A stretch of 55,798 nucleotides of DNA from an uncultured Gammaproteobacteria bacterium. Lineage in GTDB: Bacteria; Patescibacteriota; Microgenomatia; UBA8517; JACQJR01. How positions within the stretch are numbered: position 1 is the stretch's first letter; every line of letters begins with the position of its first letter. The position numbers and the translations under genes are program-made. Below the pieces are notes generated by a model that made no database searches, was not told where the DNA came from, and saw nothing but the letters and a program-made list of their open reading frames with translations. Where the stretch lies: positions 1-55,798 of the forward strand of contig CAYTZB010000007.1 in the NCBI GenBank assembly GCA_964442455.1, in the 5' to 3' direction. Below are positions 19,279-55,762 of this stretch, piece by piece.

Positions 19279-19351
19279 GGGCGCATAGCTCAGTTGGTAG
19301 AGCGTTCGCTTGACGTGCGAAAGGTCTCAGGTTCGAGTCCTGATGCGCCCA
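19279..19351 (+). tRNA. tRNA-Val(GAC)
   Basis: Hand-folded cloverleaf: GGGCGCA/TGCGCCC acceptor, GCTC/GAGC D stem, TTCGC/GCGAA anticodon stem, loop TTGACGT, TCAGG/CCTGA T stem with TTCGAGT loop; no encoded CCA. Confidence 0.9.
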
Positions 19352-19431
19352 CTGGCAACAAACCTCTCTCGACATGCAAATTTCTCTTAGTCACGCCAAA
19401 AAAGAAAAGTTGTTTTAATTTTTGAAACGAA

Positions 19432-27308: not shown

Positions 27309-28544
27309 ATGATTCTCCATGTGGATTTAGATGCCTTTTTTGCTTCGGTTGAACAGCGGGATAATCCCAAGCTTCTAGGTCGCCCGGTGATTGTCGGTGG
27401 TTCGCCCGCTTCCCGAGGAGTCGTCGCAACAGCCTCATATGAAGCACGACCGTATGGAGTTCACTCCGGTATGCCCCTTTTTCGCGCGAAGCTCCTGTGT
27501 CCCCACGCGATTTTTTTGTCTGGTAATTTTGCGAAATATGAGCGTGCATCGGAACAGTTTGTTGAAATTTGCTCATCCTACTCCCCTCTTATAGAGCAAG
27601 TCTCACTTGATGAGTTATATATGGATATGGAAGGGACACAGACATTATGGGAAAGTCCAGTCTGGGTTGCACAGCACATTAAGGAACGAGTGAAGCACGA
27701 ATTAGGCATTACGTGCTCTGTGGGAGTGGCAAGCCAAAAAACTATTGCGAAGGTTGCCTCAGGATTTAATAAGCCGAATGGTATTACTATAGTTCCAGAA
27801 GGGAGAGAAAAAGAATTTCTTGCCCCACTTCCTGTTGAAAAGTTACCAGGCTGTGGGAAACAAACCCAGAATTTCCTGAGAAGCTTTGGGATTACTACTG
27901 TGGGTGGATTTGCCGATATGGAACGGGAGCATGTAGCAATTCTTCTCGGCAAACATGGACTTTTTTTATGGGAAGTTGCAAATGGGCAGGACCACTCTCG
28001 TGTTACTCCACCTACGGACGCCAAGTCAACCAGCCGCTCTACCACCTTTCCCGCTGATTCAAATAATCACGAATTTATAGAGGCAATGCTTTTTTATCTT
28101 GCACAACGAGTCGCAAATGATGTGCGTGAAAATGGTGTGGGAGGATGGTGTGTCACTGTTACTTTGCTAACCTCGGAGTTTGAGACGCACGCAATGCAGA
28201 GGACACTTTCTTTTCCAATTATTACAGCGTGGAAACTGTTTGCTATTGGAAAAGAGTTACTTGCAAAACTTTGGGATGGAAGGACATTATTACGTTTGGT
28301 AGGTATAGGCATTTCCGGCCTTGCCTGCCGGCAGGCAGGTTTTAATCAATTGAACGGACAATTTCAATTGTTTAAAACAGTGGGTACGAACGAAAAATGG
28401 AGTTTGCTTGAGGGCGCTATGGACAAAATAAGAAAAAAATACGGATTCTTATCAATTACTCCTGCCTCAGTAATGAGACTGAAAGGAGTATATCCTGCGA
28501 CTCACCGCGGATTTCGATTATCAACCCCGTCACTCTCAAGATGA
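27309..28544 (+). CDS. dinB: DNA polymerase IV
   Basis: ILHVDLDAFFASVEQRDNP, SLDELY and little-finger region; start could be GTG 27306 or ATG 27309. Confidence 0.9.
   Translation: MILHVDLDAFFASVEQRDNPKLLGRPVIVGGSPASRGVVATASYEARPYGVHSGMPLFRAKLLCPHAIFLSGNFAKYERASEQFVEICSSYSPLIEQVSLDELYMDMEGTQTLWESPVWVAQHIKERVKHELGITCSVGVASQKTIAKVASGFNKPNGITIVPEGREKEFLAPLPVEKLPGCGKQTQNFLRSFGITTVGGFADMEREHVAILLGKHGLFLWEVANGQDHSRVTPPTDAKSTSRSTTFPADSNNHEFIEAMLFYLAQRVANDVRENGVGGWCVTVTLLTSEFETHAMQRTLSFPIITAWKLFAIGKELLAKLWDGRTLLRLVGIGISGLACRQAGFNQLNGQFQLFKTVGTNEKWSLLEGAMDKIRKKYGFLSITPASVMRLKGVYPATHRGFRLSTPSLSR
28317..28340. repeat. GC-rich palindrome (GGCCTTGCCTGCCGGCAGGCAGGT) inside the dinB CDS
   Basis: Same arms (GCCTGCC / GGCAGGCAGG) as 26957-26980 and 30823-30840; encodes ...GLACRQAGF... 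near the C-terminus. Confidence 0.75.
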
Positions 28545-29110
28545 AGCGAAAATGATTGGATGAGTCGATAGTGGGAAGTATTCATGTGTTTACTATACGT
28601 AGTCTCGTATATATTAACTGCATTGACTTTAAACTCACCTATGGGTTGTGTTTCCACCTTGCGTATATTTGACAGCAGTTGTTTCACTTCATGGGGATAC
28701 CGCATGCGTTTAAGTCGGCCGATTGTTACATGAGGAGAAAATCTTTTGGAAAGAGAGAACTCAATTCTTTTAAGTTCATTTCTTAATTGCGACTGAAGAT
28801 TTTTTAATTTTTCTTCGACGTCATGCACTTCTAAGACTATCATCGAATCACCGTGTCGTTTATAAAGATACATGCTTTCCCCTAACGAAAGAGAGAAAGG
28901 AGCATTATTTGTGCTTATTTCTTTCAATATGCGAGTAACTGAACTCAGTTTTTCTTTTGAAACAAAGCCTAAGAAAACAAGGGTAATATGAAGTTTTTCA
29001 GAATCTTCCCAATTAATAGTTGGAAACTCTTTTTTGAATGTATTAATTGAGGACTGAATTTTATGAACAATTTCCTCTGGTGGCCTGATTGCGATGAATG
29101 CGCGTGTCAT
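28502..29110 (-). CDS. thpR: RNA 2',3'-cyclic phosphodiesterase (2H phosphoesterase, LigT/ThpR)
   Basis: Two H-x-T motifs (HITLVFLG, HVTIGRL); 3' end overlaps the dinB 3' end (convergent). Confidence 0.8.
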   Translation of the reverse strand: MTRAFIAIRPPEEIVHKIQSSINTFKKEFPTINWEDSEKLHITLVFLGFVSKEKLSSVTRILKEISTNNAPFSLSLGESMYLYKRHGDSMIVLEVHDVEEKLKNLQSQLRNELKRIEFSLSKRFSPHVTIGRLKRMRYPHEVKQLLSNIRKVETQPIGEFKVNAVNIYETTYSKHMNTSHYRLIQSFSLHLESDGVDNRNPR

Positions 29111-29583
29111 TTGATGCTAGCGGGTAACTCAACAGGCGTTCCTACGGTAATATTGTGAGCTCTAGCCCAGCCGGCATTTACTTCAAGTACGTAATCAATT
29201 GGAACGCTCGAGGTATAGCGAGGGAGCGCGTCAAGAGAAGCTCCCGGAGAAGGTACAGGGGCACTCTCAGTCATCTGGGTAACTTTCCCATCGTTAATCC
29301 AAAGAATGTCCACTGCAAACCTCATATCTCTCATCCAGAATGAGGGCGTGGTGTCTGCCGTCATGACAAAGAGCATTCCTTCGCTTTCCCCAAGTGAATC
29401 CTTACCGGAAAGTCCTTTTTCGTGTGCTTCTGGTGTGTCTGCGATTTCAACTGTGAGGGTTGTATCCCCTACTTTCATCGTATTCTCGCTTTGTAGCTGG
29501 AGTTTGAATCCTCCACGAGTTAACCATGCCGCAACGAGGATCATAGCAACAAGGAGCCCAAATAAGAGCAAGATTTGTTTCAT
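29107..29583 (-). CDS. DUF192 domain protein, membrane anchored
   Basis: N-terminal TM; core GMLFV...F.M...DILWI typical of DUF192. Confidence 0.7.
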   Translation of the reverse strand: MKQILLLFGLLVAMILVAAWLTRGGFKLQLQSENTMKVGDTTLTVEIADTPEAHEKGLSGKDSLGESEGMLFVMTADTTPSFWMRDMRFAVDILWINDGKVTQMTESAPVPSPGASLDALPRYTSSVPIDYVLEVNAGWARAHNITVGTPVELPASIK

Positions 29584-29705
29584 CGCGTAATTATACTTCC
29601 AAAATAGACAATGGCAAGAACAACCACAAAGACAGTGATTGGAACGAGGAGGAGAAGTATGGATAGCCGTTCTTTATTTGGTTTAAGATGTTGGAGCTCG
29701 TTCAT
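29580..29705 (-). CDS. candidate 41-aa single-TM peptide
   Basis: ATG at 29705, 5 nt after the MBL stop; its TGA overlaps the DUF192 ATG (ATGA); hydrophobic LSILLLLVPITVFVVVLAIVYF. Confidence 0.35.
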   Translation of the reverse strand: MNELQHLKPNKERLSILLLLVPITVFVVVLAIVYFGSIITR

Positions 29706-29710
29706 AATTT

Positions 29711-30484
29711 CTATACCTCTAATTGTAACCCATCGTAAGCGATATGGAAATTGCGGCCTGCGTTTTCTCTTAAATAGTTTTCGAGGAACTTGTGTGTGCC
29801 GGTTTTGTGGCCGATATGGACAAAGTAGACACTTTTCGCTTTTAGATTCTTGCTTATAGTGATGCCATCTTGGATTGAAATGTGTCCCGGGCTCTGGCCT
29901 AGTTTGCCCAGAGACGAGCCGTCGATAATTAGTACATGACAATCTCGAATGACTCTTTGTGATGACGGCAAGATACGATTGAAATCCGGAATATAGGCAA
30001 TAAATTTACCATTTTTGTATTTGATGCCGAACGCTGGTGTTTTACCGTGAATTACTGGAAAGTAGGTTATTTTGGCGTGTTCGATGTTAAATGTTTCCAA
30101 GGGTTTTTGTATTGATACCACTATTGGCTGAAATTGGCTGAAGAATGTGCTTCTAATGTTATTTAAAACTTCTCTTGTAACAAAAAGCTTAATCTTGTCG
30201 ACTTCGTTTTCGTTTCTTCCGTAAATATGTGGAAGATCCCATAGGCCCAATATGTGATCAGGATGTGCGTGGGATATAAGAACGGCTTTCAATTTTTGAG
30301 TGACGTTTAATGGCAATAGATGATTATAAGTGTCTGGTCCTGCATCCAAAAGGACTTTGTCGTCGATTAATATTTGGGTTCTTGTACGTTTGTCTTTTGG
30401 ATCGTGCGAGGTGCAGATTTCGCAATTGCACCCCAATCGCGGTAGCGGCCATCCAGCAGAAGTACCTAGAAAGGTTAAGTGCAT
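29711..30484 (-). CDS. MBL-fold metallo-hydrolase (PhnP-like / tRNase Z family)
   Basis: LTFLGTS start, Cys cluster GCNCEIC, HAHPDH metal motif; ATG at 30484 is separated from the tRNA-Leu 3' end (30486) by 1 nt. Confidence 0.8.
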   Translation of the reverse strand: MHLTFLGTSAGWPLPRLGCNCEICTSHDPKDKRTRTQILIDDKVLLDAGPDTYNHLLPLNVTQKLKAVLISHAHPDHILGLWDLPHIYGRNENEVDKIKLFVTREVLNNIRSTFFSQFQPIVVSIQKPLETFNIEHAKITYFPVIHGKTPAFGIKYKNGKFIAYIPDFNRILPSSQRVIRDCHVLIIDGSSLGKLGQSPGHISIQDGITISKNLKAKSVYFVHIGHKTGTHKFLENYLRENAGRNFHIAYDGLQLEV

Positions 30485-30485
30485 G

Positions 30486-30568
30486 TGCGGGCGGGAGGAT
30501 TTGAACCCCCACGGTCTTGCGACCACAAGGTCCTAAACCTTGCGTGTCTACCATTTCACCACGCCCGC
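30486..30568 (-). tRNA. tRNA-Leu(TAG)
   Basis: Hand-folded: GCGGGCG/CGCCCGC acceptor, anticodon stem CAAGG/CCTTG with loop TTTAGGA, long variable arm, GGGGG/CCTCC T stem; no encoded CCA. Confidence 0.9.
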
Positions 30569-30884: not shown

Positions 30885-31129
30885 GAGAGGGCGATTCCTT
30901 TCGGTCTCGCCCTCTCTAGGTGTCCCACCTTTTCTTTCGAAAGAGTGGGACATGTTGCCCTCTGTCGTTCTTTCGAACTCTAGAGGACTTGGTGCCCCCC
31001 TCTGCCTTTCGGCTTTGGAGGACTTGGTGTCCCACCTTTTCTTTCGAAAGAGTGGGACTTGGCGTCCACCTAGACCTTTCGGTTTTCGGCGGACATGGTG
31101 CCCCCCCAAGTCTTTCGACGTAGGGGGAC
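30885..31129. repeat. tandem array of 7 hairpin units (34-37 nt each) with conserved CTTTCG apex
   Basis: Units start at 30885, 30919, 30954, 30991, 31026, 31061 and 31097; 30919 and 31026 are near-identical; the others differ in arm sequence but stay self-complementary. Confidence 0.8.
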
Positions 31130-31380
31130 AAAAAATCCCAAAGTAATCCCGATAAATCGGGATACCTCAGGATCTAGTGTGTACTATAACACACAACCTA
31201 TAGCTTGTCAAGCGGATATACTATTTTCAATAAAAATTAACTATGTTCGCGCAGACCCCGTAAAGCTGCTCCACGAGGCGTATACGAATAGTATTGAAAA
31301 GCCAAGTGGTAAGGCGAAAGTGGGGTCAAGTTTTACCTTATTTCGAACAAAGTAAGAAACAAGCTCGGCTTATAGTATTT

Positions 31381-32105: not shown

Positions 32106-32627
32106 ATGGATGAAGAAGAAATAATAGGTTCATCCGATCAAGAGCAGCCTACTTCTAGGGTCAAAAGGGCTGAGTATCGAGATTTTATAAATCGAAGAGC
32201 TAAAGTTGCGTATATGATAAGCGAGGGAAAAGTACTCTTTACAGCTACGAAAAGCTCAATAGAAACAACAAGCACAATTAATGCCGCTGAAAGGATAGTA
32301 AAAGCAATTTGCGATGCTGAAGGAATTAACTGGAAGGATCCTTCATTTCTTGAAAAATACGAATTTTATGATTTCACTACACCTGTAGGATATCCAACAC
32401 CTGTAGGATATCCAGGCAGACAAATGGATAAAATGGAAATCCTCAAGTTAGAAATAATACCTTTCAAAAGAGGCATGCGTGACGATATCATGGTAAAGTC
32501 TTGGACTCAATGTGAAATTCAACAAGGTTCTTCCCCTAACAGTCATGGATCAGTAGAACTCCCAGCTTTGCCAGTTGCGACGATTAAAGGGTTCATTAAC
32601 TCTTTACCTTCACCTACCTCAGAATAA
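32106..32627 (+). CDS. hypothetical protein (173 aa)
   Basis: ATG-initiated ORF; contains a tandem PVGYPTPVGYP repeat; no motif recognised. Confidence 0.55.
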   Translation: MDEEEIIGSSDQEQPTSRVKRAEYRDFINRRAKVAYMISEGKVLFTATKSSIETTSTINAAERIVKAICDAEGINWKDPSFLEKYEFYDFTTPVGYPTPVGYPGRQMDKMEILKLEIIPFKRGMRDDIMVKSWTQCEIQQGSSPNSHGSVELPALPVATIKGFINSLPSPTSE

Positions 32628-32752
32628 AAAACCTGGATATTTAAGCAAAATTTTGGTAAAATAAGCGTAATACGCGCCCATAAGGAAACCTTGCGATTTC
32701 ATCGTAAGAACTATGGCTACGCCAGAACCTTGTGGACGCTTCGCTATCGCTT

Positions 32753-32826
32753 GCGCCCATAGCTCAACTGGATAGAGCGCGTGGCTTCGGACCATGAGGT
32801 TGGGGGTTCGAGTCCTCCTGGGCGCG
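32753..32826 (+). tRNA. tRNA-Arg(TCG)
   Basis: Hand-folded: GCGCCCA/TGGGCGC acceptor, loop CTTCGGA, GGGGG/CCTCC T stem with TTCGAGT loop. Confidence 0.9.
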
Positions 32827-32942
32827 CAAGATACGAAGTACCTGAGCAGACCAGGGGACGAGAATTTATTCGCCTGTCGCCGAAGGCGACTGACACGGAG
32901 TCACGAGTTTACCGAGGGACGAGTACATCCCTCCTGGGCGCG
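32827..32942 (+). mobile_element. tRNA-3'-end-associated mini element E1 (116 nt, ends in a duplicate of the tRNA-Arg 3' end)
   Basis: Begins ..GATACGAAGTACC, core GGGACGAGAATTTATTCGC, ends ACGAGTACATCC + CTCCTGGGCGCG, repeating 32815-32826. Confidence 0.7.
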
Positions 32943-32947
32943 CACGA

Positions 32948-33019
32948 GGTCCCGTAGCTCAATGGTAGAGCATCCGGCTCTTAACCGGGCGGTTGGAGGT
33001 TCGAGTCCTCCCGGGATCA
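32948..33019 (+). tRNA. tRNA-Lys(CTT)
   Basis: Hand-folded: GGTCCCG/CGGGATC acceptor, TCCGG/CCGGG anticodon stem, loop CTCTTAA, GGAGG/CCTCC T stem. Confidence 0.9.
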
Positions 33020-33120
33020 CTAGATACGAAGTACCTAGGGAGAGCGGGGGACGAGAATTTATTCGCACTCCGCCGATAGGCGGAGACACACAGCGAAGCG
33101 AGTACGTCCTCCCGGGATCA
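33020..33120 (+). mobile_element. tRNA-3'-end-associated mini element E2 (101 nt, ends in a duplicate of the tRNA-Lys 3' end)
   Basis: Begins ..GATACGAAGTACC, core GGGACGAGAATTTATTCGC, ends GCGAGTACGTCC + TCCCGGGATCA; the last 15 nt GTCCTCCCGGGATCA repeat 33005-33019. Confidence 0.7.
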
Positions 33121-33150
33121 CAATTAATGACGCACAAGCCATAAATAATT

Positions 33151-33846
33151 ATGGAAAGCATCGAAAACGGGAACAAAAACTCTGAAGTAAAAACTGTCCG
33201 TCAACATGCGGAGGAGTTTATCCGCTCTCTTCCAAAGGATGGGGTTTTCTTACATCTTACAACTTTTAAGAACTCACAGGTAATTCAACAAGAAGGTGCA
33301 AAAAGCACAAGGGGAAAGATCTGGCAGTTTTCATTCGCCAGTCATTATCCTTTTGTCGATTATTATTCAAGCAAGGGAATAAGGGATACTATCAGAAAAT
33401 TTAGGGGGTCAATAGTAGAAGGACTTAATATGACTGAACATCATCGTGAAGGAGGAGAAAATGTAACTAATTTGTCTCCTGATTCCCTTCCGGTTCTAGT
33501 AATTGGAAGAAAGCAAAGATCTGTGGATTCTACTATGATCGATACCGAAGGAGATTTTAGGAATTTCCCCACAGGTGTTTCAAGATCTATATCTCCAAAA
33601 GATATTCTTTATATATCTACCATTTCACCTGAGGAATATCGTGATTTAGTTGAGAAATCCATGAATGAACCATTACCAAAAAAATATGCGGTATTTAGGT
33701 CTCCAAGGGAAAGGTATATTTTAGAAAAAATTGCAGGAGCTTTGGCCCGAAAGGCTATAATTGGTCTTATGAATCAAAAAAGTGAATACCCAAATACTGT
33801 GAGAACAAAATTAAGTAATTTTTTTGCTAAATTATTCACATCCTGA
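33151..33846 (+). CDS. hypothetical protein (231 aa)
   Basis: ATG-initiated ORF between the tRNA pair and the nuclease / R-M island; no motif recognised. Confidence 0.6.
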   Translation: MESIENGNKNSEVKTVRQHAEEFIRSLPKDGVFLHLTTFKNSQVIQQEGAKSTRGKIWQFSFASHYPFVDYYSSKGIRDTIRKFRGSIVEGLNMTEHHREGGENVTNLSPDSLPVLVIGRKQRSVDSTMIDTEGDFRNFPTGVSRSISPKDILYISTISPEEYRDLVEKSMNEPLPKKYAVFRSPRERYILEKIAGALARKAIIGLMNQKSEYPNTVRTKLSNFFAKLFTS

Positions 33847-33874
33847 TTATCAAATTGGTCTTCGATTATATTTA

Positions 33875-34627
33875 TCATTCTTCTTTTTTGATAAGTCTTC
33901 GATACTGACAAAACTCACAATCGGGGTAGGGGTCGGGAATATTATCTGAATTAAGACAATCTTTCATCGCAAAAATAGTTGGTTCTACCCAAGAAGCATC
34001 TCCTTTATGAGAAATTATCTGGACTTCAAATTCAATTTTGGCATCGAACACTCGATCACCTTTAAGTCCATTTGCATAAACAAAATAGGCTATATCAGAA
34101 ACATCGAATCCCTTTTGTCTAAAAATCCATTGATACCACTCAACCTGCTTTTTGTATCCTTGCTTATATTCATCATCCAAACTAATTTCTTTCGAGGTAC
34201 TGGTAGATTTGTAGTCAACGATATGAAGTTGACCTTTTGGGTTAACCCAAATATCGTCTATGATTCCGCAAATTTCCAAGTTGGTAGGCTTGTGTAATAC
34301 GCAAGCGCCTACAAATCTCTTGTGGTCATCTCGCCATTCGGGCAAATCCGGATGTTGAAAGGGAATTGCATCTATACCGTATTCCTCCATCAAAGCATGT
34401 TTTTTGCCGTCTTTTCGAAGTAAATCAAACTCATTTTTAAGAAGATGGTCAACTGCATCATTAAGAGACCAGCCAGGGAGTCCGGGGCGATCCAGTCCTA
34501 TCCGACGGTCAAGATAAAAGCATCTTGGGCAACCCAGAAACCCCTCCATCCTTGAGCGTGAAATACGAAAAGGCTCGGTAGATTTTGGATTATAAAGATT
34601 GCCTTTTCTTTGTTTGTATTTATTCAT
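33875..34627 (-). CDS. PD-(D/E)XK nuclease, Cas4/RecB-like with Cys cluster
   Basis: N-terminal CPRC, IIDD ... IVDYKS (D / D-x-K), QVEWYQW (Q-x3-Y), C-terminal CEFCQY. Confidence 0.75.
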   Translation of the reverse strand: MNKYKQRKGNLYNPKSTEPFRISRSRMEGFLGCPRCFYLDRRIGLDRPGLPGWSLNDAVDHLLKNEFDLLRKDGKKHALMEEYGIDAIPFQHPDLPEWRDDHKRFVGACVLHKPTNLEICGIIDDIWVNPKGQLHIVDYKSTSTSKEISLDDEYKQGYKKQVEWYQWIFRQKGFDVSDIAYFVYANGLKGDRVFDAKIEFEVQIISHKGDASWVEPTIFAMKDCLNSDNIPDPYPDCEFCQYRRLIKKEE

Positions 34628-34662
34628 TTGCGTGTGTCCAAATTATGTAACCAAAGTGTAGA

Positions 34663-34687
34663 CGCCTGCCCACCCCTGGAGGGGCGA
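34663..34687. repeat. short GC-rich imperfect palindrome between hsdR and the nuclease gene
   Basis: Minus strand reads CGCCCCTCCAGGGGTGGGCAGGCG; shares CCAGGGGTGG with 8871-8880. Confidence 0.3.
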
Positions 34688-34747
34688 TAAACCTGTCCTG
34701 AGCAAGTCGAAGGATCAAAATGTTTCATAATATTAATGTACTACTTT

Positions 34748-37700
34748 TTAAGCCGTAGCATATACTCCTGGACTCCAATCTTGATAAAGAACAGATGCCT
34801 GTTTATAGACAACGTCAACAATCTTCTCACTCTCGCCGGCAGAAAAATTATTCCTCAACAAGAATAGCCTTACGTTAGCGCGGATTTTTGCTTTAATAGC
34901 TTCGTTGTTAGTCCAATCTATAGTTGAACAATCTCGTCTTATCATTTTAACAAGTTCCTTTACTAAATCTTTTAACTTTCCGTTTTTAAGTTCCGTTTTT
35001 CTAGCGTCAGCAATAGCATCATAGAATGCCATCTCTTCCTCACTCAATCCTAAATCTTTCCATGCCGCTTCCTGTTTCCTTATATCTTTTGCCAGCTCAA
35101 TCAAACGTTCAATAACCTTTGTTGAATTAATAATATTATTCTCGTAATCTTCAATTATATCCTCCAAAATTTCCATAAGGGATTTATACCTTACGATGTT
35201 TTTCCTTAGTCTTATTCGAAGCTCATCTTGCAAAAGTTTCTTTAATACCTCAACCGCTAGATTTTTAAACCGCATCTTTTTAACTTCGTCCAAAAATTGA
35301 TCATCAAATATAGAAATGTCCGGTTTACCCTTTCCCTTCATAGCAAAAATATCAATCACGCCTTCCGCAGCGATACTCTTTGAGATAAGCTCTCTAATAG
35401 CTGTTTCGGTGTCAGATTCTAGAATTCCTCCTTCAGTAATAACAGTTCTCTTTATTAAAATTCCTCTAATAGCTTTGAAAAACTCAACATCTCCTCTTAT
35501 TTGATGTGCTTCGTGGTGAGGCATAACAAATGCATGAAGCTTATGCAAATGCTCGCATTCGGTTAAAAATCTCTTCTTTTTTGCCTCATCTATCTTTCCG
35601 GTTTTTACATCAGTAATAACCATATCCACAGCCTGCTGAAGCAATCTTGTTAAGTCAGTATTTGGTAGCTTTTTCCAATTTGAAAATTCCAGACCGGTAA
35701 ACATACTTTTCACCACGTCATATTTCTCCATCATCTTGGCAATCAAATCATCAAGCGGCACCATAGCTTCTTTTTGGATGTCGGAGCTATAAATGCTTAA
35801 GGCTTTTCTCAGATCATCGGCAATTCCAATATAGTCAACAATTAGCCCTGCCAGTTTATCTTTCCAAATGCGATTAACCCTGGCAATTGCCTGAATAAGC
35901 GTGTGTCCTTTTAGGGGTTTATCAATGTACATGGTATGAAGCGGCTGAACATCGAAGCCGGTCAGCCACATATCGCATACTATAACCAGCTTCAGAGGAT
36001 CGTCCGGATTTTTAAATCTTTTCTCAATTTCGCGAGCCTCCATCTCTGTTTGAATCCTGTCTTTAAAACTTTCAGGACTAGAAATCACCACCGCAACTTC
36101 CGGAGCATTAGCTTGTTTTTTAATCATTTGGTACATCTCAACTGCTACCTTCCTGCTTATTGTCACTATCATTCCTTTTCCCTCAATACCTCTATTGTTA
36201 AAATGGAAGATTATATCTTGGGAGATTTGTTCTAGCCTTTCTTTTGCTCCTACCGCCTGTTCCAGCCTTGCAAATTTTTTCTTAAAACTCTCTCGTACAT
36301 CGTATGGGTGTTCGGCAAGTAATTGATCGTATTCCTCATCAATAAAGTAATTAGTTAAATGAAGAGGAACTAGTCTACCTTCATAATAAATAGGTACAGT
36401 TGCGCCATCACTGATAGCTTTATCCATTCTGTATTCGGTGATGTGATCTCCAAATACCAACCTCGTATCTCGGTTATTTAAACTAATCGGTGTTCCAGTA
36501 ATACCCATGAATGAGGCATTGGGGATTGCCGCTCTCATATTGCCGGCAAGCTTGGCATACTCCGAGCGGTGGGCCTCATCTGCAATCACAATGATATTTT
36601 CGCGACGGGATAAGAGTCCGTATTCTTCTCCCTGGAATTTTTGAATAGTAGTAAAAATTAGTTCTGCCCCGGCAGTTTTTAACCTTGTCTTTAAGTCTTT
36701 TACGCCTTCTGTCTGTTTGGCCAGCTTGTCATACCCGGTTCTTAGAAATGTTTTAAAAAGTTGGCTATCTAAATCATTTCTGTCTGTTAAGAAAAGAAAT
36801 GTAGGGCTTTTCAACTCATCCAAATTTTTTGCTTTATTCACATAAAATACCATTGAAATTGATTTGCCGCTTCCTTGAGAGTGCCAAAATACCCCAATCT
36901 TTTTGTTGCCCCGGGGGGAAGTTGCCCGAAGCGTTTGAGAAACGGCCTTGTTGACTCCAAAATATTGGTGATACAAACATATCTTTTTAGTATATGTGCT
37001 GACATCTTTCTCGCTGTCCGCCTCAAAAAGAATAAAATTTTCCAAAATATCCAATAAGCGTAATTTTTGAAAAATACCCTTGACTAAAACCTCAAGCTCC
37101 GTAATACCAAGCTCGTGTTTTTCATCTTCGCTTTCAACGCCTTTCCAGACAGAGAACCACTCCCAAGGAGAGCTGATAGTCCCGTGACGTGCCTCGGTTG
37201 TGTCGCTGACAACCAAAACCTGGTTATATTTGAAAATATCGGGAATATCCTTTTTGTATTCCTGAAGTTGGAAGTAGGCCGATTGAATAGTCGCGCTTTC
37301 CAAAGTAGGGTTTTTAACTTCGAAAATCGCAACTGGTACTCCATTGACAAAAACAATAATATCCGGTCTTCTTACTTTTTCTATTCCCTGGATGGCAAAC
37401 TGATTAACGACCAAAAATTCATTATTTTGTAAATTTTTAAAATCTATTACTTTGGCAAATCGACCTCTTTTTTCGCCATTTTCATCCTCAACTTCAACTC
37501 TTATGCCTTCCGTTAACATCCGGTAAACTTCTTTATTGGCAATTTCCAAATTGGGATGTTCAACGCTTTTTAGTTGATACATGGCATCCTCTATTGCTTT
37601 ATCCGGAAGTTCGGGATTGATTCTGCGCAAAGCCTGCTCCAGCCGTTTTAACAAAATGACCTCGCGGAAGTTCTCACGCTCCGCAAAGGCAACCCCGGGC

Positions 37701-37795
37701 GCCAAATCCGGCCCAAAAGCATATTCATACCCTAACTCCTTGAGCCAATCCAATACCGGCTGTTCAGCTAATGTATCTTCGTTAAGATTTGTCAT
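34748..37795 (-). CDS. hsdR: type I restriction enzyme R subunit
   Basis: 1015 aa; HsdR N-terminal nuclease region, SF2 helicase motifs (QGSGKS Walker A, IADEAHRS DEAH box, QAIARVNR motif VI). Confidence 0.93.
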   Translation of the reverse strand: MTNLNEDTLAEQPVLDWLKELGYEYAFGPDLAPGVAFAERENFREVILLKRLEQALRRINPELPDKAIEDAMYQLKSVEHPNLEIANKEVYRMLTEGIRVEVEDENGEKRGRFAKVIDFKNLQNNEFLVVNQFAIQGIEKVRRPDIIVFVNGVPVAIFEVKNPTLESATIQSAYFQLQEYKKDIPDIFKYNQVLVVSDTTEARHGTISSPWEWFSVWKGVESEDEKHELGITELEVLVKGIFQKLRLLDILENFILFEADSEKDVSTYTKKICLYHQYFGVNKAVSQTLRATSPRGNKKIGVFWHSQGSGKSISMVFYVNKAKNLDELKSPTFLFLTDRNDLDSQLFKTFLRTGYDKLAKQTEGVKDLKTRLKTAGAELIFTTIQKFQGEEYGLLSRRENIIVIADEAHRSEYAKLAGNMRAAIPNASFMGITGTPISLNNRDTRLVFGDHITEYRMDKAISDGATVPIYYEGRLVPLHLTNYFIDEEYDQLLAEHPYDVRESFKKKFARLEQAVGAKERLEQISQDIIFHFNNRGIEGKGMIVTISRKVAVEMYQMIKKQANAPEVAVVISSPESFKDRIQTEMEAREIEKRFKNPDDPLKLVIVCDMWLTGFDVQPLHTMYIDKPLKGHTLIQAIARVNRIWKDKLAGLIVDYIGIADDLRKALSIYSSDIQKEAMVPLDDLIAKMMEKYDVVKSMFTGLEFSNWKKLPNTDLTRLLQQAVDMVITDVKTGKIDEAKKKRFLTECEHLHKLHAFVMPHHEAHQIRGDVEFFKAIRGILIKRTVITEGGILESDTETAIRELISKSIAAEGVIDIFAMKGKGKPDISIFDDQFLDEVKKMRFKNLAVEVLKKLLQDELRIRLRKNIVRYKSLMEILEDIIEDYENNIINSTKVIERLIELAKDIRKQEAAWKDLGLSEEEMAFYDAIADARKTELKNGKLKDLVKELVKMIRRDCSTIDWTNNEAIKAKIRANVRLFLLRNNFSAGESEKIVDVVYKQASVLYQDWSPGVYATA

Positions 37796-38550
37796 AGACT
37801 ACTTTTAGACCATTCTAAAAACTTCTCAATAGTATTTCTTGTGTACTGCATAAATTCCTTACGCTTTTCGTAAGTTATCGGAGGGTAATTGCCATGACGA
37901 TTGTTTTTAGCAAAACTTAACAAGTCCAGATTTTTCGTAATTGATAAACTGGATGCCATTTTTTCCCAAGCATTTTTATCTCGTTTGCTGTCATCTTTTA
38001 TGTTATGGTCATCGAAGTAAGTCCTTCGTATTGTTTCGAGAGCTCTTAGACAATATAGCGCAGTCGTTCGGGGATATTTAATTGATCTACGATAATCAGT
38101 CAAAGCAAGAGATATGGCATTAGATTTTTCCTGAAGCCTCATTACTTGATCCAGCATTTTGGAGAAATCATCATGCTTAGCTTTGTATCCCCACTCGCCT
38201 ATAACTGGAAAGTCGTAATTTAATCCTGTTTGTTTGCATGTAACTTTATCTATAGAAACATCGTAATTGTACGAGTTAACGAAACAAAAGGTATCAACAA
38301 AAGTGCGAATAGTTTCCTCTATATAATTTTTGAGTGTCTCTATATTTGGCTCTGTATCTTGGTCAAATTTCTGATCTGTTTCAAATATAGCTTTTGCTTT
38401 GGAATTTTTTACTTCGAGCGAAAACCTACCATTTATGCCCCAGTCAGGAATTAAGATTGAAACCTCTCCATAACGATTCTCTAAGCTACTCAAGTCAAAC
38501 CTAACCCTTTCTGGATAAACAAGTCCTAAAAACTCATACCTGTATTTCAT
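37792..38550 (-). CDS. uncharacterised protein embedded between hsdS and hsdR (252 aa)
   Basis: Starts 2 nt after the hsdS stop; its TGA overlaps the hsdR ATG (ATGA); no P-loop; helical C-half contains RRTYFDDH (an R-x5-H spacing). Confidence 0.75.
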   Translation of the reverse strand: MKYRYEFLGLVYPERVRFDLSSLENRYGEVSILIPDWGINGRFSLEVKNSKAKAIFETDQKFDQDTEPNIETLKNYIEETIRTFVDTFCFVNSYNYDVSIDKVTCKQTGLNYDFPVIGEWGYKAKHDDFSKMLDQVMRLQEKSNAISLALTDYRRSIKYPRTTALYCLRALETIRRTYFDDHNIKDDSKRDKNAWEKMASSLSITKNLDLLSFAKNNRHGNYPPITYEKRKEFMQYTRNTIEKFLEWSKSSL

Positions 38551-38552
38551 AT

Positions 38553-39749
38553 TTATACTCTTATTTCTCCTCTCATTAACTTTGGCAAGAGTAAATCGCG
38601 AAGGGCGGCCAATTTTTGATTTTCTACCTCTATTAAATTTGTTTGACTAAAAATAGGCCTCACAAAATTTTGGAATTTTTCTATTAAATCGTTTACAGGT
38701 AAAACAAAGTTGTAATCTTCTATTGTTGATTTGCTCAAATGAGCAACATTTGTTCCTCCAGCCGAGCTAGCCATTCGGTAGGAAAATTCTTTTCTTAGCA
38801 TTAAGTAATAAAGAAATTCCACATACAGTTCATCTGTAGCTACCGCACAGACATCGAGTGATATCAATATTTTGTCCCAATGGGAATAAGAAGGGACGCG
38901 AGCAGGATGACCAATTACTTCACGATTGGAAGTTAAGTCTGTCATGGCAATTACGATACCGCCAGGTTTAACTAAATTTGTTGAATTATATCTGCCTGTA
39001 TAAAATTTAATCCCATCAGGATTAAAACCACCACCTCTTTGGAAATTGGCCAAATTTATCATTGGTAACCCTTTAGATTTTTCGTTTATTTCATTTGAAG
39101 AATAAGAAAGGCCTTTATTTATTTTTGCTATGTCTTTAATCTTTTTTGCTTCCCATCCTTTCGGAATTTTGCCCAGTTCGCTATCTACAAATTCTGCCTT
39201 TTCATACCTAGGGAATCTAAAATGTACAAACCATTCTTTAAAAAGCGCTTGGGCCATATCTTCCAAAGTTTTTGCAATTTTATTATTTACCTCAATCTTG
39301 TCATCAAAACCAGAAAGGATAGATATAATACGGTGCTGTGTTGTCTGTGGCGGGAGTAAAACAGATAGATTTTCAAAGATAGGTAATCTCAACGATTTAA
39401 CTGTGGAACCAACTGCATATTTAGAGAGATACTTATTATTGAGGCAAAACCAATAAAAAAGAAATTTATTCAACACCTCATTTTGTAAACTGTATATTGC
39501 ATAAACCCTTTGATGCAGATCGAACTTGCCAGAAAAAAATCGTGGTATAAATTCTTTACCTTCCCCGGGAATAATTACAGCTTCTCTGTCAAAGAGATAT
39601 TTATTGCTTCTCTTTATCTCTAGAGACCTATCGAATAAAGGGTATTTTCCACCGACAACTGCATCTTGTGTATTAGTCGAACCTGTCCCTATTTTCGCAA
39701 TTTCTCCCAATTTCACTTTTTGCCAATTTTTTGGAATTTGATTTTGCAT
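38553..39749 (-). CDS. hsdS: type I restriction enzyme S (specificity) subunit
   Basis: 398 aa, two target-recognition halves separated by a conserved central region (LPPQTTQHRIISILSGFDDKIE) and a C-terminal conserved helix (...LLLPKLMRGEIRV). Confidence 0.9.
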   Translation of the reverse strand: MQNQIPKNWQKVKLGEIAKIGTGSTNTQDAVVGGKYPLFDRSLEIKRSNKYLFDREAVIIPGEGKEFIPRFFSGKFDLHQRVYAIYSLQNEVLNKFLFYWFCLNNKYLSKYAVGSTVKSLRLPIFENLSVLLPPQTTQHRIISILSGFDDKIEVNNKIAKTLEDMAQALFKEWFVHFRFPRYEKAEFVDSELGKIPKGWEAKKIKDIAKINKGLSYSSNEINEKSKGLPMINLANFQRGGGFNPDGIKFYTGRYNSTNLVKPGGIVIAMTDLTSNREVIGHPARVPSYSHWDKILISLDVCAVATDELYVEFLYYLMLRKEFSYRMASSAGGTNVAHLSKSTIEDYNFVLPVNDLIEKFQNFVRPIFSQTNLIEVENQKLAALRDLLLPKLMRGEIRV

Positions 39750-39750
39750 A

Positions 39751-40086
39751 TTATTTTTTCAGTAATCCTATAAGCGGAATCCTATCTAATAAATATTGTC
39801 TTTTCATTTTAAGATGTTCCAACTCTGCTTCCAGAGTTTTACGCTCTCTCTCCACAATTCTATCTAACACTGATTAAGAAATTGGGCCTCTTTGCATAAA
39901 CACTATGTATTCCAAATTATCCATCCAGTCCTTGACTATAAATATGTTTTCTTCTATCTCATTTGTTTTTTGAAAAATATTTCTGACATAAAAATACGAA
40001 AACAAAACTACCCCAATTGACAATACCGCTAGAATTAAACCAGGGGCTTTATTCAACAGCTCACCAATTTGAATCTGATTTTGCAT
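39751..40086 (-). pseudogene. possible hsdS remnant (70-aa ORF 39874-40086 plus an in-frame 40-codon tail 39751-39873)
   Basis: The 5' end and upstream AAAAATAAT..ATGCAAAATCA duplicate the hsdS start (MQNQI...GE(L/I)); after a TAA the same frame reads ...LEHLKMKRQYLLDRIPLIGLLKK, like an HsdS C-terminal helix. Confidence 0.4.
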
Positions 40087-40089
40087 ATA

Positions 40090-40500
40090 TTATTTTTCCT
40101 CCTCTTTTTTAGTAAGGTGTTTGATGAATTCTCTAACTTTCTCATCCTTTAACAATTCCGGATTATCAGCGAATAAATCAAACCAGTAGTCTCCATTTCC
40201 AGAACCATGATAGTTTATAATTCTCGATCTAGAATCTCCCTTTATTCCGAAATATTCAGTCCCTATTGTCCACGCAGTCGATTTTGCAATTAGCGCGAAA
40301 AGAAAGACGATAGTATAGATCACTATAAAAACATCATTTTCAGTAACTTGTGTCGGAAGCCAATTATAAGCAAGGCTAAGTAATCCCAACCATGCAAAGC
40401 CGTATACGATAGGACCTACAAATTTGGTAACAGCACTAACTGATTTATAAATAAGTTCACAGTTAATCTTTAGCTTAACCTTATCCAATGAATTTTGCAT
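40090..40500 (-). CDS. uncharacterised 2-TM membrane protein embedded in the hsd operon (136 aa)
   Basis: ATG 1 nt after the orf345 stop; hydrophobic FVGPIVYGFAWLGLLSLAYNWL and VFIVIYTIVFLFALIAKSTAW; charged soluble C-terminus. Confidence 0.7.
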   Translation of the reverse strand: MQNSLDKVKLKINCELIYKSVSAVTKFVGPIVYGFAWLGLLSLAYNWLPTQVTENDVFIVIYTIVFLFALIAKSTAWTIGTEYFGIKGDSRSRIINYHGSGNGDYWFDLFADNPELLKDEKVREFIKHLTKKEEEK

Positions 40501-40501
40501 T

Positions 40502-41539
40502 TTATTCCCTTCTACTTCCTAGAAATGAACTAATGAAATTACCGACAGGTTCGTTACTATTACCTCCGGGGTCTCCTTTTGATACATAACCAGTCGCACT
40601 TCCTCTAAACATTGCGTCAGCCCCAGAGCGTACTAAAACAGATTTGTCTTCTGGTTCTGGTTTTGAACTCAAAAAATCTTTAAGTGTTTCTGCCACATTT
40701 TTCCTATGTTTATTAATAATTTCTAGGTGAGAGTTTGCACTATAGTTTTTGGAGGCAAAGCCGACAGCATATGATAAAAGGCCAAGAAGTGCTAATTTTA
40801 CTGCACCATACTCAATTGTAAAAATTTCTTTGGGTGGAAAATTTGGCCAAAAATCTAGTTTATCTGAAATGAATAGATAAAGATATACACCGAGATTTGC
40901 AATAATTATAAAAAGTAACCATTTGAAGAAAATAATTCTTCTTGCTTCCCAATCTCTTGCTCTTTGTACATATTCTTTAGCTTGTGCCTCAAAATGTTTA
41001 CCGAATGTTATCGCTGCTATCTCTCCATGCTTGACTTCGACTTCCTGCTCTCTCTTCCCCAGAGCCTCTAACTGTTGTTTCAATTTATCTGATAGGACTT
41101 TATATTCTTTTTCTGCTTGCACAGCCGCTTTCTGTTGTTTTTGTAATTCTTTAGCATCCTGACTTTTTAATGCCGCTTCTTGACGAAGATAAACCAGGTT
41201 ATTTCTTAGATTTCTAAAGACTTCATCATAAAAATTTCTTGTATTTGTTTCAAAATTGTCATGCTGATCTTTATTGAATCCAACTGACAAATCAAACGAA
41301 GCCAATTGTTTTAAATGATTGACAAAGCTATCTATATACTGATCTATTTGGCTAACCTCTGGTTGAGAAAGTGCATCTTGATATGATAATTCTTGTAACT
41401 CCTTAAATAGGTTCTGAAGACGCCCCAAAAAAGGGTAGACTGCATCAAAAGCCAACGAACCAAACTTCTCTTTGTTAAGAGCGAGACTTTTAATATCTAA
41501 ATTTGGTAGAGATTCTTTTGTTATTTCATCAGGGTTCAT
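40502..41539 (-). CDS. uncharacterised coiled-coil + 2-TM protein embedded in the hsd operon (345 aa)
   Basis: ATG overlaps the hsdM TGA (ATGA); about 190-aa helical/coiled-coil N-half, then IIFFKWLLFIIIANLGVYLYLFI and GAVKLALLGLLSYAVGFA, then a soluble tail. Confidence 0.75.
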   Translation of the reverse strand: MNPDEITKESLPNLDIKSLALNKEKFGSLAFDAVYPFLGRLQNLFKELQELSYQDALSQPEVSQIDQYIDSFVNHLKQLASFDLSVGFNKDQHDNFETNTRNFYDEVFRNLRNNLVYLRQEAALKSQDAKELQKQQKAAVQAEKEYKVLSDKLKQQLEALGKREQEVEVKHGEIAAITFGKHFEAQAKEYVQRARDWEARRIIFFKWLLFIIIANLGVYLYLFISDKLDFWPNFPPKEIFTIEYGAVKLALLGLLSYAVGFASKNYSANSHLEIINKHRKNVAETLKDFLSSKPEPEDKSVLVRSGADAMFRGSATGYVSKGDPGGNSNEPVGNFISSFLGSRRE

Positions 41540-43326
41540 ATTTTAATTCTCCTTAGATTTTCCAAAATTTCTTTTTCTAATTTTTCGGATTCTACAAAAT
41601 ATTGTTTTAAATCTTTTTCTAATTTTTCTTTTTTCTCCTTAAAGGGGATGCCATCGTCTTCTTCTTCAGCAACTCCAACATACATACCCGGGTTAAGACG
41701 ATATCCATTTTTTACAATTTCCTCAAGAGTCACTACTTTGCAAAAGCCAGCTACAGCTTTATAATCCTGCGCTCCTGACTCACCCCGGTAAGCCCTTACG
41801 GTTCCGGCTATTTTTTGGATATGCTCGTCGTTGAAGACTACTTGCTTTCTTGAGATTGCCTCAAAAATTTCCCGCGCATCAATAAAAAGTGTTTTTCTGG
41901 TTCTATCATTAAACCGTCCGTTCTTTTTGTTCTTAGTTAAAAACCAAAGGGATACGGGAAGCGAGACATTGAAAAAGAGTTTGGGTGGGCAAGCGATTAT
42001 TACATCAACTAGATCATCTTCTATAATCTTCCTTCTAATTTCTCCTTCTCTGCCGCCAACGGCTAAAGCGCCGTTTGCCATAACAAATCCGGCTATACCG
42101 TTTGGTGCTAAATGGTGTAAAAAGTGTTGAATCCACATAAAGTTGGCATTTCCGGATGGGGGAGTTCCGTATTTGATCCGGGGATCTTTATCGCTTAGGC
42201 GCCCCGGTTCCCATTCGGCATTAAAGGGAGGATTTGCTAGGACAAAATCTGCCCTAAGATCGGGGAATTTATCATCATAATAGGAATTTCCAAGCTCAAT
42301 TTGTCCAAAAATGCCGCGGATTGCCAGATTCATTTTGCAAAGGCGAAGGGTTGTTGGGTTTGACTCCTGTCCGAAAAATGAGATTTTTGATGGGTCTTTT
42401 TTGTGCATCTTTAAAAATTCTCGAGATTGAACAAGCATACCTCCGCTGCCTATGGCGGGGTCAAATATCCGGGCATTTTCAAAAGGTTCAAGGATTTCTA
42501 CAAGTAACCGAACAATTGATCTTGGAGTAAAGAACTCCCCGCCGCGCTTACCTTCTGCGGAAGCAAATTGGCCCAAAAAGTACTCATAAACCCTTCCTAA
42601 GATATCCTTTTCGTAAGTTATATCATCATCAAACTTAAGTTTTGAGAAGATATTAACCAGTTCTCCCAGAGTTTGGGGTTCAAGTTGTGTTCTTGTATAA
42701 ATTTTTGAGAGGACTCCTTTAAGCTGTTTAGGGTTTTCATTTTCAATTGCATCCATTGCCTCATCAAGATAACGGCCGATATCCTGATGGAATGCGTGTT
42801 GCTTGAGGTATTCCCATCTGGCGTTTTCCGGAATATAGAAAACTCCGATACTTTGGTATTGGTCTTTATCATCAATAATTAGCTTGCGGTCTTTTTCATT
42901 GGGAAGATAATATTCTTTGTTTTTGGAATCACTTACCCATTCTTCAATTTGATGCCTCCTTTGGTAAAAAAGGTCAGATACATATTTAAGAAACAAGAGG
43001 CCTAAAACAACGTGTTTGTATTCAGAAACATCTATATTCCCCCGGAGTCTGTCTGCTGCTGCCCAGAGTTCTTTTGCAAAATGGAGGTCTCCATTATAGC
43101 TACGCTTAGGCTCTATAGCTCTTTCTATCGCTTCCTGTTGAGATTCTGTAATTCTGTTTTTAATTTCAAGGGGAAGAGTACTAAATTTTACAAGATATTT
43201 TTTTCCTTCAGTTCTTACTTCAATTTCTCCGGAGTTTATTTTTCCTTGAAGTTGTTTTAATGTTGCTTGGCGGGAAATACCAAGCATTCTTGCCAAATCG
43301 GTAATAGAAATAAAATCTTTATCCAT
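41536..43326 (-). CDS. hsdM: type I restriction enzyme M subunit (N6-adenine methyltransferase) with N-terminal HTH extension
   Basis: HsdM_N-like LWAAADRLRG...VVLGLLFLKYVSD, motif I DPAIGSGGM, motif IV NPPF; the first 85 aa or so carry ISITDLARMLGISRQATLKQL (HTH-like). Confidence 0.93.
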   Translation of the reverse strand: MDKDFISITDLARMLGISRQATLKQLQGKINSGEIEVRTEGKKYLVKFSTLPLEIKNRITESQQEAIERAIEPKRSYNGDLHFAKELWAAADRLRGNIDVSEYKHVVLGLLFLKYVSDLFYQRRHQIEEWVSDSKNKEYYLPNEKDRKLIIDDKDQYQSIGVFYIPENARWEYLKQHAFHQDIGRYLDEAMDAIENENPKQLKGVLSKIYTRTQLEPQTLGELVNIFSKLKFDDDITYEKDILGRVYEYFLGQFASAEGKRGGEFFTPRSIVRLLVEILEPFENARIFDPAIGSGGMLVQSREFLKMHKKDPSKISFFGQESNPTTLRLCKMNLAIRGIFGQIELGNSYYDDKFPDLRADFVLANPPFNAEWEPGRLSDKDPRIKYGTPPSGNANFMWIQHFLHHLAPNGIAGFVMANGALAVGGREGEIRRKIIEDDLVDVIIACPPKLFFNVSLPVSLWFLTKNKKNGRFNDRTRKTLFIDAREIFEAISRKQVVFNDEHIQKIAGTVRAYRGESGAQDYKAVAGFCKVVTLEEIVKNGYRLNPGMYVGVAEEEDDGIPFKEKKEKLEKDLKQYFVESEKLEKEILENLRRIKI

Positions 43327-50547: not shown

Positions 50548-50596
50548 CACTTTTCCACGTTTTCTTTGCACCCTCCCAAAGCGTAGATTTAGCTTT

Positions 50597-55757: not shown

Positions 55758-55762
55758 CAAAT

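Follow-up and report, generated by a model that had tools for sequence, protein, structure and literature searches.

Three homologous inserts lie directly 3′ of the genes for tRNA-Arg(TCG), tRNA-Lys(CTT) and tRNA-Leu(GAG) in a 55,798-nucleotide stretch of DNA from an uncultured bacterium (contig CAYTZB010000007.1, hereafter the window), and each ends in a second copy of the 3′ end of its own tRNA. We refer to these inserts as E1, E2 and E3, respectively. Our favoured reading of their sequence organisation, which we put forward tentatively, is that they represent one small element of 85-110 bp, non-coding and non-autonomous, whose insertion at tRNA gene 3′ ends proceeds via 16-bp staggered cuts. 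A previous sequence-only reading had placed inserts directly behind the Arg and Lys tRNAs, with a third at Leu(GAG); the coordinates given by ARAGORN and Rfam, together with the positions of the internal motifs, bear this out. The host genes, interiors and repeats are listed below, where the inverted tail denotes an inverted copy of the cognate tRNA 3′ tail.

32753 to 32827, plus strand: tRNA-Arg(TCG), host of E1, with T-arm GGGGGTTCGAGTCCTCC (ARAGORN; Rfam tRNA, 64.1 bits).
32813 to 32828, plus strand: proximal 16-bp repeat TCCTCCTGGGCGCGCA, tRNA-Arg positions about 60 to 75.
32829 to 32927, plus strand: E1 interior (99 nt), with hairpin UAC-GAA-GUA, inverted-tail segment CCAGG-GGAC and conserved GGGACGAGAATTTATTCGC.
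Within 32829 to 32927, plus strand: further E1 hairpins GUCGCC-GAA-GGCGAC and T-arm-like GAGGGA-CGAGUACA-UCCCUC.
32928 to 32944, plus strand: E1 distal repeat TCC[C]TCCTGGGCGCGCA, perfect over 15 nt; CGA and tRNA-Lys come next.
32948 to 33020, plus strand: tRNA-Lys(CTT), host of E2, with T-arm GGAGGTTCGAGTCCTCC; the proximal repeat consists of the final 16 nt of the tRNA (33005-33020) (ARAGORN, Rfam).
33021 to 33105, plus strand: E2 interior (85 nt), with middle hairpin CUCCGCC-GAUA-GGCGGAG.
33106 to 33121, plus strand: E2 distal 16-bp repeat GTCCTCCCGGGATCAC.
55551 to 55633, plus strand: tRNA-Leu(GAG), host of E3, with proximal repeat TCCTCTCGTCCGCACA at 55619-55634 (ARAGORN, Rfam).
55635 to 55743, plus strand: E3 interior (109 nt), with blocks as in E1 and E2 and inverted tail GCGG-CGAG-GGAC.
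Extra E3 hairpins, plus strand: GAGCUUG-CGAAAAA-CAAGCUC at 55668-55688, GCGAG-AAU-CUCGC and GGCUC-GUG-AGCC.
55744 to 55759, plus strand: E3 distal 16-bp repeat, followed by AAT and then a tRNA from 55763 (cut by the window end).

All three interiors are non-coding and clearly related. The motif GGGACGAGAATTTATT occurs exactly three times in the 55.8 kb (32855, 33048 and 55650), 17-28 nt 3′ of the host tRNAs; with up to three mismatches it has five matches in the window, a count reached by none of 100 shuffles. The 9-mer ACGAAGTAC is also present exactly three times, at 32833, 33026 and 55634, all at E1-E3, and a profile of E1-E3 run against the window recovered only these three clear copies (nhmmer, E = 1e-22 to 5e-30). 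E1 and E2 are identical at 74 of 82 aligned positions (90%), while E3 is ~77-88% identical to either and carries the extra hairpins. The interiors differ by insertions or deletions of whole hairpins, a pattern of divergence as in an ageing repeat family.

While the interior is common to all three, the flanking repeats are tRNA-specific, as had been claimed: there are three different repeats with a constant length of 16 bp. The distal copies of each tRNA's own 3′ end, which were likewise noted before, are perfect over 15-16 nt. The Lys repeat GTCCTCCCGGGATCAC (33005-33020 and 33106-33121) and the Leu(GAG) repeat TCCTCTCGTCCGCACA (55619-55634 and 55744-55759) contain no mismatch, and the Arg repeat CCTCCTGGGCGCGCA is perfect over 15 nt (32814-32828 and 32930-32944). 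Reading the E1 distal copy as TCC[C]TCCTGGGCGCGCA, with one inserted C, brings all three duplications to 16 bp, and this C, the only imperfection among the repeats, lies in a distal copy, outside any tRNA gene. The proximal repeats run from T-loop position 59/60 to position 74/75, 1-2 nt beyond the discriminator; the interiors start 0-2 nt after the discriminator and have a single orientation throughout. Such a fixed repeat length points to an enzymatic ruler. Beyond the discriminator the distal copies carry on with genomic bases rather than CCA, so their source is DNA or precursor sequence and not mature tRNA; reverse transcription from mature tRNA was ruled out on this ground.

The ends of the elements are alike in direct, not inverted, orientation, with (T)AGATACGAAGTAC or CGAAGTAC on the left and CGAGTAC(A) or CGAGAAAA on the right. 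No terminal inverted repeats are present in E1-E3, both ends being direct CGA(A)GTAC / CGAG(T/A)A motifs. The sequence-only reading had called the inserts similar to MITEs (miniature inverted-repeat transposable elements); this suits their short length, lack of coding capacity and constant-length duplication, but not the missing terminal inverted repeats or the lack of a known parent element. It had also described a T-loop-like CGAGT upstream of the distal copy with 2-3 extra nt. The T-loop-like stretch is there, as CGAG[TACA]TCC, CGAG[TACG]TCC and CGAG[AAAA]TCC, but the extra segment measures 4-5 nt.

Eleven tRNA genes were found in the window, with ARAGORN and Rfam in agreement. The T-arm GAGTCCTC / GGTTCGAGTCCTC is common to all three hosts, and an element stands behind three of the four tRNAs in the window with T-arm GAGTCCTC versus none of the seven with other T-arms (Fisher 0.024). 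The lone element-free tRNA with the host T-arm GGTTCGAGTCCTC, Leu-CAG, encodes its own CCA and abuts the next tRNA. The proposal that the T-loop/acceptor 3′ region is the target is upheld to this extent, that elements occur only behind tRNAs with this T-arm. When an insert and one repeat are deleted on paper, 5-nt spacers are left, CACGA before tRNA-Lys and CAAAT before the tRNA at 55763; uninterrupted neighbouring tRNAs in tight clusters are separated by spacers of 4-8 nt. We therefore prefer insertion because the homologous interior, the tRNA-specific repeats of constant length, the single orientation, the restored spacers and the common host T-arm occur together, a combination most simply explained by 16-bp staggered insertion followed by gap repair. 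Of the two options raised before in place of tRNA gene duplication, insertion with target duplication thus fits best and a simple attachment-site (att) scar fits less well.

In the mechanism we propose, the element would insert in one orientation at the 3′ ends of tRNA genes with T-arm GGTTCGAGTCCTC. An enzyme supplied in trans, from outside the window, would cut with a 16-bp stagger, once where T-loop and T-stem meet and once 1-2 nt beyond the discriminator base. The last 16 bp of the tRNA would then be duplicated by gap repair, with the gene intact to the left of the insert and a spare tail to its right. The inserted element would be co-transcribed with the tRNAs, its hairpins would form, and a helix between the inverted tail and the distal tail would close the fold; this closing helix may keep the insert from disturbing tRNA folding and end processing. 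Promoter-like sites were found upstream of tRNA-Arg (32634-32662) and upstream of the Leu/Pro cluster (55233-55262). A scan found no promoter- or terminator-like site inside E1 or E2, and in E3 it marked only the 55668-55688 hairpin as terminator-like, which we interpret as an extra E3 hairpin. Elements with no promoter or terminator of their own should be co-transcribed with their tRNAs, and we expect this of E1-E3.

The same geometry invites a comparison with integrases. Here the units would be attL-remnant-attR footprints, or mini-cassettes, of a T-loop-targeting tyrosine integrase that is encoded elsewhere or lost, with small circles or larger elements carrying a tRNA 3′ end having recombined into the tRNA genes. 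The identity block does span the T-loop border to the gene 3′ end, which is reportedly the classic layout of integrase att sites in tRNA genes; a T-loop-like CGAG lies left of the distal copy, E1 contains a symmetric hairpin GAGGGA/TCCCTC, and a low-GC type I restriction-modification island begins directly after E2. We nevertheless judge an integrase scar distinctly unlikely, because one family with three tRNA-specific tails would need three attP variants or chimeric tRNAs, and three independent deletions would need to leave the same ~100 bp. In addition, the T-loop-like stretch, with its 4-5 extra nt, is not identical to the T-loop, so no crossover would occur there, and no third tRNA-Lys tail copy bounds the far end of the restriction-modification segment. 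No integrase is encoded in the window either, in line with the sequence-only reading: comparison of ~56 open reading frames (ORFs) with Pfam revealed no Phage_integrase or recombinase domain, yet two Y1 transposases associated with repetitive extragenic palindromes (REPs) are encoded. A circle-junction/attP pattern had no match in IMG/VR. The low-GC segment (0.34-0.40; 33151-43326) directly 3′ of E2 looks island-like in itself. It holds an orphan 231-aa ORF, a PD-(D/E)XK nuclease and a type I restriction-modification system (HsdR 34748-37795, HsdS 38553-39749, HsdM 41536-43326).

The insertion model is weakest where the cognate inverted tail is concerned, since duplication by itself would not produce one. 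Each unit carries an inverted copy of the tail of its own tRNA just 5′ of a conserved GGGAC (E1 CCAGG-GGAC, E2 CGGG-GGAC, E3 GCGG-CGAG-GGAC). The inverted tail and the distal tail can pair to form a helix of ~9-12 bp, and the closed helix would resemble stacked acceptor and T stems with a protruding discriminator. Possible explanations are that the inverted tail is a guide that chooses the target, that it locks onto the spare tail after insertion, or that the unit is a selected trailer RNA. A lock could keep the element from invading the tRNA acceptor stem, and a trailer could act as a minihelix mimic, a decoy or a switch. The inverted tail recurs in diverged and shorter relatives within the window and near one predicted transcript start.

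55085 to 55193, minus strand: E4, a diverged member 5′ of tRNA-Gly(TCC), with pseudo-tail CTTGCCCGCC, hairpin GUUAC-GAA-GUAAC, GCGGGATAG, GAGAATTTGTATT and ATTCGC.
54914 to 55012, minus strand: two short units after tRNA-Gly(TCC), U1 (47 nt, 55012-54966) and U2 (32 nt, 54955-54924).
32671 to 32685, plus strand: TACGCGCCCATAAGG at the predicted tRNA-Arg transcript start, an inverted Arg tail (12/15) just 3′ of the promoter-like site at 32634-32662.

E4 has the block order and spacing of E1-E3, with GUUAC-GAA-GUAAC, 8 nt, GGGAnnGAGAATTT and later ATTCGC, and its inverted tail GCGGGATAG matches the Gly tail at 9/9 positions. It has no tRNA in front and no distal tail, and sits in the 5′ leader of tRNA-Gly (55013-55084, minus strand). 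Behind the same tRNA, the last 10 nt of U1 and of U2 repeat the Gly 3′ end, TATCCCGCTC, without mismatch, and U1 contains the inverted tail GAGTGGGA followed by GGGAC, plus a GAA-loop hairpin. The tRNA-Gly trailer is therefore a tail-unit-tail-unit-tail mini-array, after which come a REP hairpin and a terminator-like hairpin at 54844-54830. The predicted 5′ end of the tRNA-Arg transcript also begins with an inverted tail, ACGCGCCCA, the segment TACGCGCCCATAAGG corresponding to the tRNA-Arg 5′ acceptor strand plus the complement of the discriminator.

These features keep an RNA-level alternative alive, since the units contain an inverted tRNA tail; the sequence-only reading had itself raised decoy ends acting on tRNA maturation. 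In this alternative, rather unlikely but a serious competitor of the insertion model, the units would be selected RNA modules of the tRNA transcripts, in which the inverted tail pairs with the distal tail and mimics an acceptor/T-stem minihelix, including the discriminator. Such a module could serve as a processing signal or decoy for RNase P, RNase Z, the CCA-adding enzyme or tRNA-targeting toxins, or as a switch that competes for the acceptor. The inverted tails beside GGGAC form 12 pairs with two bulges in E3, 9 pairs in E1 and 8 pairs in Gly-U1, next to the 9/9 match of E4, and G-U pairs occur on the tRNA-sense strand only. The flanks of three of the eleven tRNAs contain a stretch of 8 nt or more that matches the cognate tail exactly in inverted orientation, an enrichment over non-cognate matches of this length, which number ~1 in roughly 100 independent comparisons. 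Shuffle tests of the inverted tail gave p = 0.03, 0.17, 0.03 and 0.016 for E1, E2, E3 and E4, so that the cognate match of E2 is weak; these alignment-based results reach moderate significance only, and the exact matches give the better signal. Duplex energies between interior and tail were not better for cognate than for non-cognate tails, which speaks against the module, and part of the pairing lacks tRNA specificity, being the common GGGAC:GTCC(T)C. The conserved GGACGAGA matches the Leu(GAG) tail exactly in inverted orientation, a hint that the family may have arisen at a Leu(GAG)-like tRNA.

The predicted secondary structures bear on the same question. The hairpin 3′ of the conserved block, at a fixed position, has undergone compensatory changes between E1 (GUCGCC-GAA-GGCGAC) and E2 (CUCCGCC-GAUA-GGCGGAG), and in E3 it is replaced by a different perfect hairpin at the same position, so that pairing persists through compensatory or complete change, which favours a selected RNA. 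In minimum-free-energy folds of a tRNA with its element, the distal tail is base-paired to the tRNA 5′ acceptor strand, and the inverted tail to the proximal tail, so that two conformations compete on paper. The lack of internal promoters and terminators, and with it co-transcription, also fits an RNA module, as do distal tails that stay nearly perfect though the interiors diverge. Against it, E1 folds with unremarkable stability (z = -0.5), such a module is missing from most tRNAs in the window, no conservation is seen beyond one population, and Rfam has no matching family. Nor does an RNA module account for the homologous interiors behind three unrelated tRNAs, with their constant 16-bp duplication. 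The Rfam search returned only tRNAs at gathering score in the window. Below threshold there was nothing for E1 or E2, and the 3′ part of E3 (55708-55757) matched Transposase-2 RNA (RF03015) at 21.1 bits versus a gathering score of 42.7. E3 and Transposase-2 RNA have the single-stranded motif GAAGCGnGAA in common; the match is at chance level for the whole window and probably a chance one.

It is doubtful that the inverted tail is a functional guide, whether by pairing that programmes the insertion site or by making each unit a bespoke minihelix decoy or conformational switch for the cognate acceptor end. If true, the guide option would describe a base-pairing-directed insertion system specific for tRNA ends, with a 16-bp duplication and without inverted repeats.

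A resemblance to tRNAs themselves was also considered. The units might be decayed partial tRNA duplicates ('top-half' pseudo-tRNAs) in which the interior is an expanded T-loop remnant and the ends are kept alike by gene conversion. The order of parts, an acceptor-5′-like strand, GGGG, xCGAGx, ~50-70 nt, CGAG, the T-stem 3′ strand, the acceptor 3′ strand and the discriminator, is that of a minihelix with an expanded loop, and E3 has an internal TTCGAG. However, the E1-E3 interiors are homologous to each other and not to their respective tRNAs, neither ARAGORN nor the Rfam tRNA model makes a call inside E1-E4, and gene conversion is unlikely to act on 16-nt tracts whose flanks have next to no homology. 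We regard this origin as very improbable.

The two Y1 transposase genes of the window (925-1605 and 51119-51769, both on the minus strand) are IS200-like and raise a further option, the least likely of those considered here, in which a Y1 (HUH) transposase, either of IS200/IS605 type or REP-associated, moves the units as single-stranded DNA. As an extended internal guide, the inverted tail would then pair both with the target tRNA tail and with the unit's own right end, and the distal tail would belong to the element instead of being a duplication. C-GAA-G mini-hairpins, of a type known for high stability in single-stranded DNA, abound in the units and recur from one to the next. The order left flank, hairpin, guide, hairpin, right end parallels IS608, in which internal guides pair with the cleavage sites. 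However, known guides are 4 nt and not 8-12, retargeting would leave non-identical tails and none such is seen, and both transposase genes are flanked by their own, different REP hairpins, (C/A)CACCT-TCGA-AGGTG(G/T). The local REP hairpin does not occur within E1-E4 and has no sequence in common with the elements. There are ~12 REPs in the 56 kb, at about 875, 1647, 22292, 44352, 44377, 50598, 51101, 51788, 54831 and 54879 among others. Several adjoin tRNA trailers, and the REP loop (TTCGA) resembles the tRNA T-loop.

The window is bacterial, encoding PBP1a, bacterial PheS/PheT, trigger factor, IF-3, L20 and DUF5660. The locus is present at 100% identity in six assemblies, an NCBI metagenome-assembled genome contig (GCA_016182755.1) and five independent Logan assemblies from sister samples, and is therefore real sequence and not an assembly artefact. 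Look-ups of exact proteins showed that all contigs of the population are identical, many of them broken inside tRNA regions. Breaks recur in independent Logan contigs (L023-L027, L046-L048 and L050) at 55041 in tRNA-Gly, at 34630 after the PD-(D/E)XK nuclease gene and at 32946-32948 at the start of tRNA-Lys, which suggests repeats or strain variation at tRNA loci.

A search for the core motif had been put forward as a check on the family. In the window all exact copies of the core motifs are behind tRNAs; genome and metagenome collections gave only chance matches. The paired core motifs were found at 21 loci in GTDB representatives (185,579 genomes) and at 6 loci in JGI metagenomes, none of which abuts a tRNA in the arrangement of E1-E3 or extends into an element, and IMG/VR gave chance matches only, none with that arrangement. 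Chance expectation for these scans was estimated from collection size and pattern specificity, and the match counts agreed with it. A six-frame translation of the elements used as a protein query returned nothing at E <= 10. BLAST against phage records matched only the tRNA-Lys part of the query, and an E3-only query had no match in plasmid records. The flanking 231-aa and 273-aa proteins are orphans that led to no orthologous locus via neighbours, the single 58%-identical homologue of a flanking protein lying at a non-syntenic locus without tRNAs. At the sensitivity of exact-motif scans, the family appears confined to one population.

Several observations weigh against insertion by a mobile element. 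The distal tails are almost perfect despite the diverged interiors, which could reflect selection or gene conversion. Plain target duplication predicts no inverted cognate tail inside the units, and E3, E4 and Gly-U1 contain one, with a moderate match in E1 and a weak one in E2. E3 lacks the first 5 nt common to E1 and E2. The ~56 ORFs of the window include no Cas1, integrase or recombinase, DDE transposase or reverse transcriptase, and no autonomous parent element is found in the window. With no relatives in the GTDB, JGI and IMG/VR motif scans or in the six-frame protein-level search, we infer mobility solely from anatomy. Just three clear copies are known; with one diverged copy and two mini-units, from one population, they make up the evidence base.

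Other features of the tRNA neighbourhoods were recorded. A tRNA with anticodon CTA (50474-50548, plus strand) is called tRNA-Pyl by ARAGORN; it is a paralogue of tRNA-Arg(TCG), identical at 59/75 positions and with the same acceptor stem. Yet TAG ends 10 of the 36 Pfam-supported ORFs; the tRNA may be amber-suppressor-like. A further local family of structured repeats, three to four related hairpins (e.g. GTCCCACCTTTTCTTTCGAAAGAGTGGGAC) that contain GGGAC, occupies 30916-31132, flanked by tRNA-Leu(TAG) and a GIY-YIG gene. Two genes whose products may process or repair tRNA ends adjoin tRNA-Leu(TAG) at 28502-30568, one for a LigT-like 2′-5′ RNA ligase/cyclic phosphodiesterase and one for an MBL-fold hydrolase weakly similar to RNase Z. 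A 43-nt A-rich repeat is present twice (79% identical) at 19378-19499, just 3′ of tRNA-Val (19279-19352), and a perfect 18-nt tandem duplication (two copies of ACACCTGTAGGATATCCA) lies at 32379-32414 in a 173-aa orphan ORF upstream of tRNA-Arg.

If mobile, the elements would be the smallest known to use tRNA gene ends as safe landing sites, and a casposon-like geometry without inverted repeats would suggest that an uncultured bacterium with a small genome has an insertion enzyme yet to be characterised. Should the inverted and spare tails be selected instead, they would represent tRNA-trailer RNAs of a new type, each mimicking its own tRNA's acceptor stem or competing with it, with a bearing on tRNA-end maturation or protection in reduced genomes. 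Either way, spare tRNA ends are an annotation trap, as tools that find islands by duplicated tRNA 3′ ends would call false att sites here.

To our knowledge, casposases are the only well-studied enzymes that make long, fixed duplications beside the tRNA T-loop. Casposons resemble E1-E3 in their orientation-specific insertion at the tRNA gene 3′ end and in the length and constancy of the duplication (14-15 bp versus 16 bp). The T-loop region also lies directly 5′ of the duplicated segment, where in Aciduliprofundum boonei it acts as the 'leader' for recognition. When casposases integrate at the 3′ end of a tRNA, they duplicate 14-15 bp and recognise the T-loop region in the manner of a leader, and tandem re-use of one site is known (PMC5137440, PMC4779613). 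However, casposons are 8-20 kb long, encode Cas1 and PolB and have terminal inverted repeats, whereas the present elements are ~100 bp with neither genes nor such repeats. In A. boonei just 5 bp of the duplication fall within the tRNA, in contrast to a duplication here that covers all 16 terminal base pairs, and casposons have no internal inverted target copy. Because both Cas1 (in the window) and terminal inverted repeats are absent, on present evidence E1-E3 do not appear to be casposon derivatives, and the casposon serves as a mechanistic analogy only.

Elements moved by tyrosine integrases likewise have on either side a direct repeat that reaches from the T-loop border to the gene 3′ end, and they leave the tRNA gene intact, but they use one attP per family, whereas E1-E3 are one family with three tRNA-specific repeats of equal length and inserts of only ~100 bp, with no integrase in the window. 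MITEs, and the REP/REPIN sequences with their REP-associated tyrosine transposases (RAYTs), are similarly short, non-coding, hairpin-rich, multi-copy and dependent on an enzyme acting in trans, and both RAYT genes and REPs are present in the window. MITEs differ in having terminal inverted repeats and duplications of 2-10 bp, against which 16 bp is unusually long; REPs create no duplication, are not tRNA-specific and have no sequence in common with the elements. The IS200/IS605 family and palindrome-associated transposable elements (PATEs) also lack terminal inverted repeats and have subterminal hairpins, and the internal segment complementary to the left flank and right end of our units is guide-like. 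The known guides and targets of these elements are 4-5 nt, however, with no 16-nt identity and no preference for tRNA ends. At the RNA level, plant mitochondrial t-elements, viral tRNA-like 3′ ends and mascRNA share an acceptor/T-like helix with discriminator that could be read by tRNA-end enzymes, but these mimic tRNAs generally, not a neighbour's own tail, and have no bracketing duplications. No described family fits E1-E3, the nearest being tRNA-targeting mobile elements and MITE-like repeats. A 16-bp duplication without inverted repeats and with an internal inverted copy of the target would be a new combination among them.

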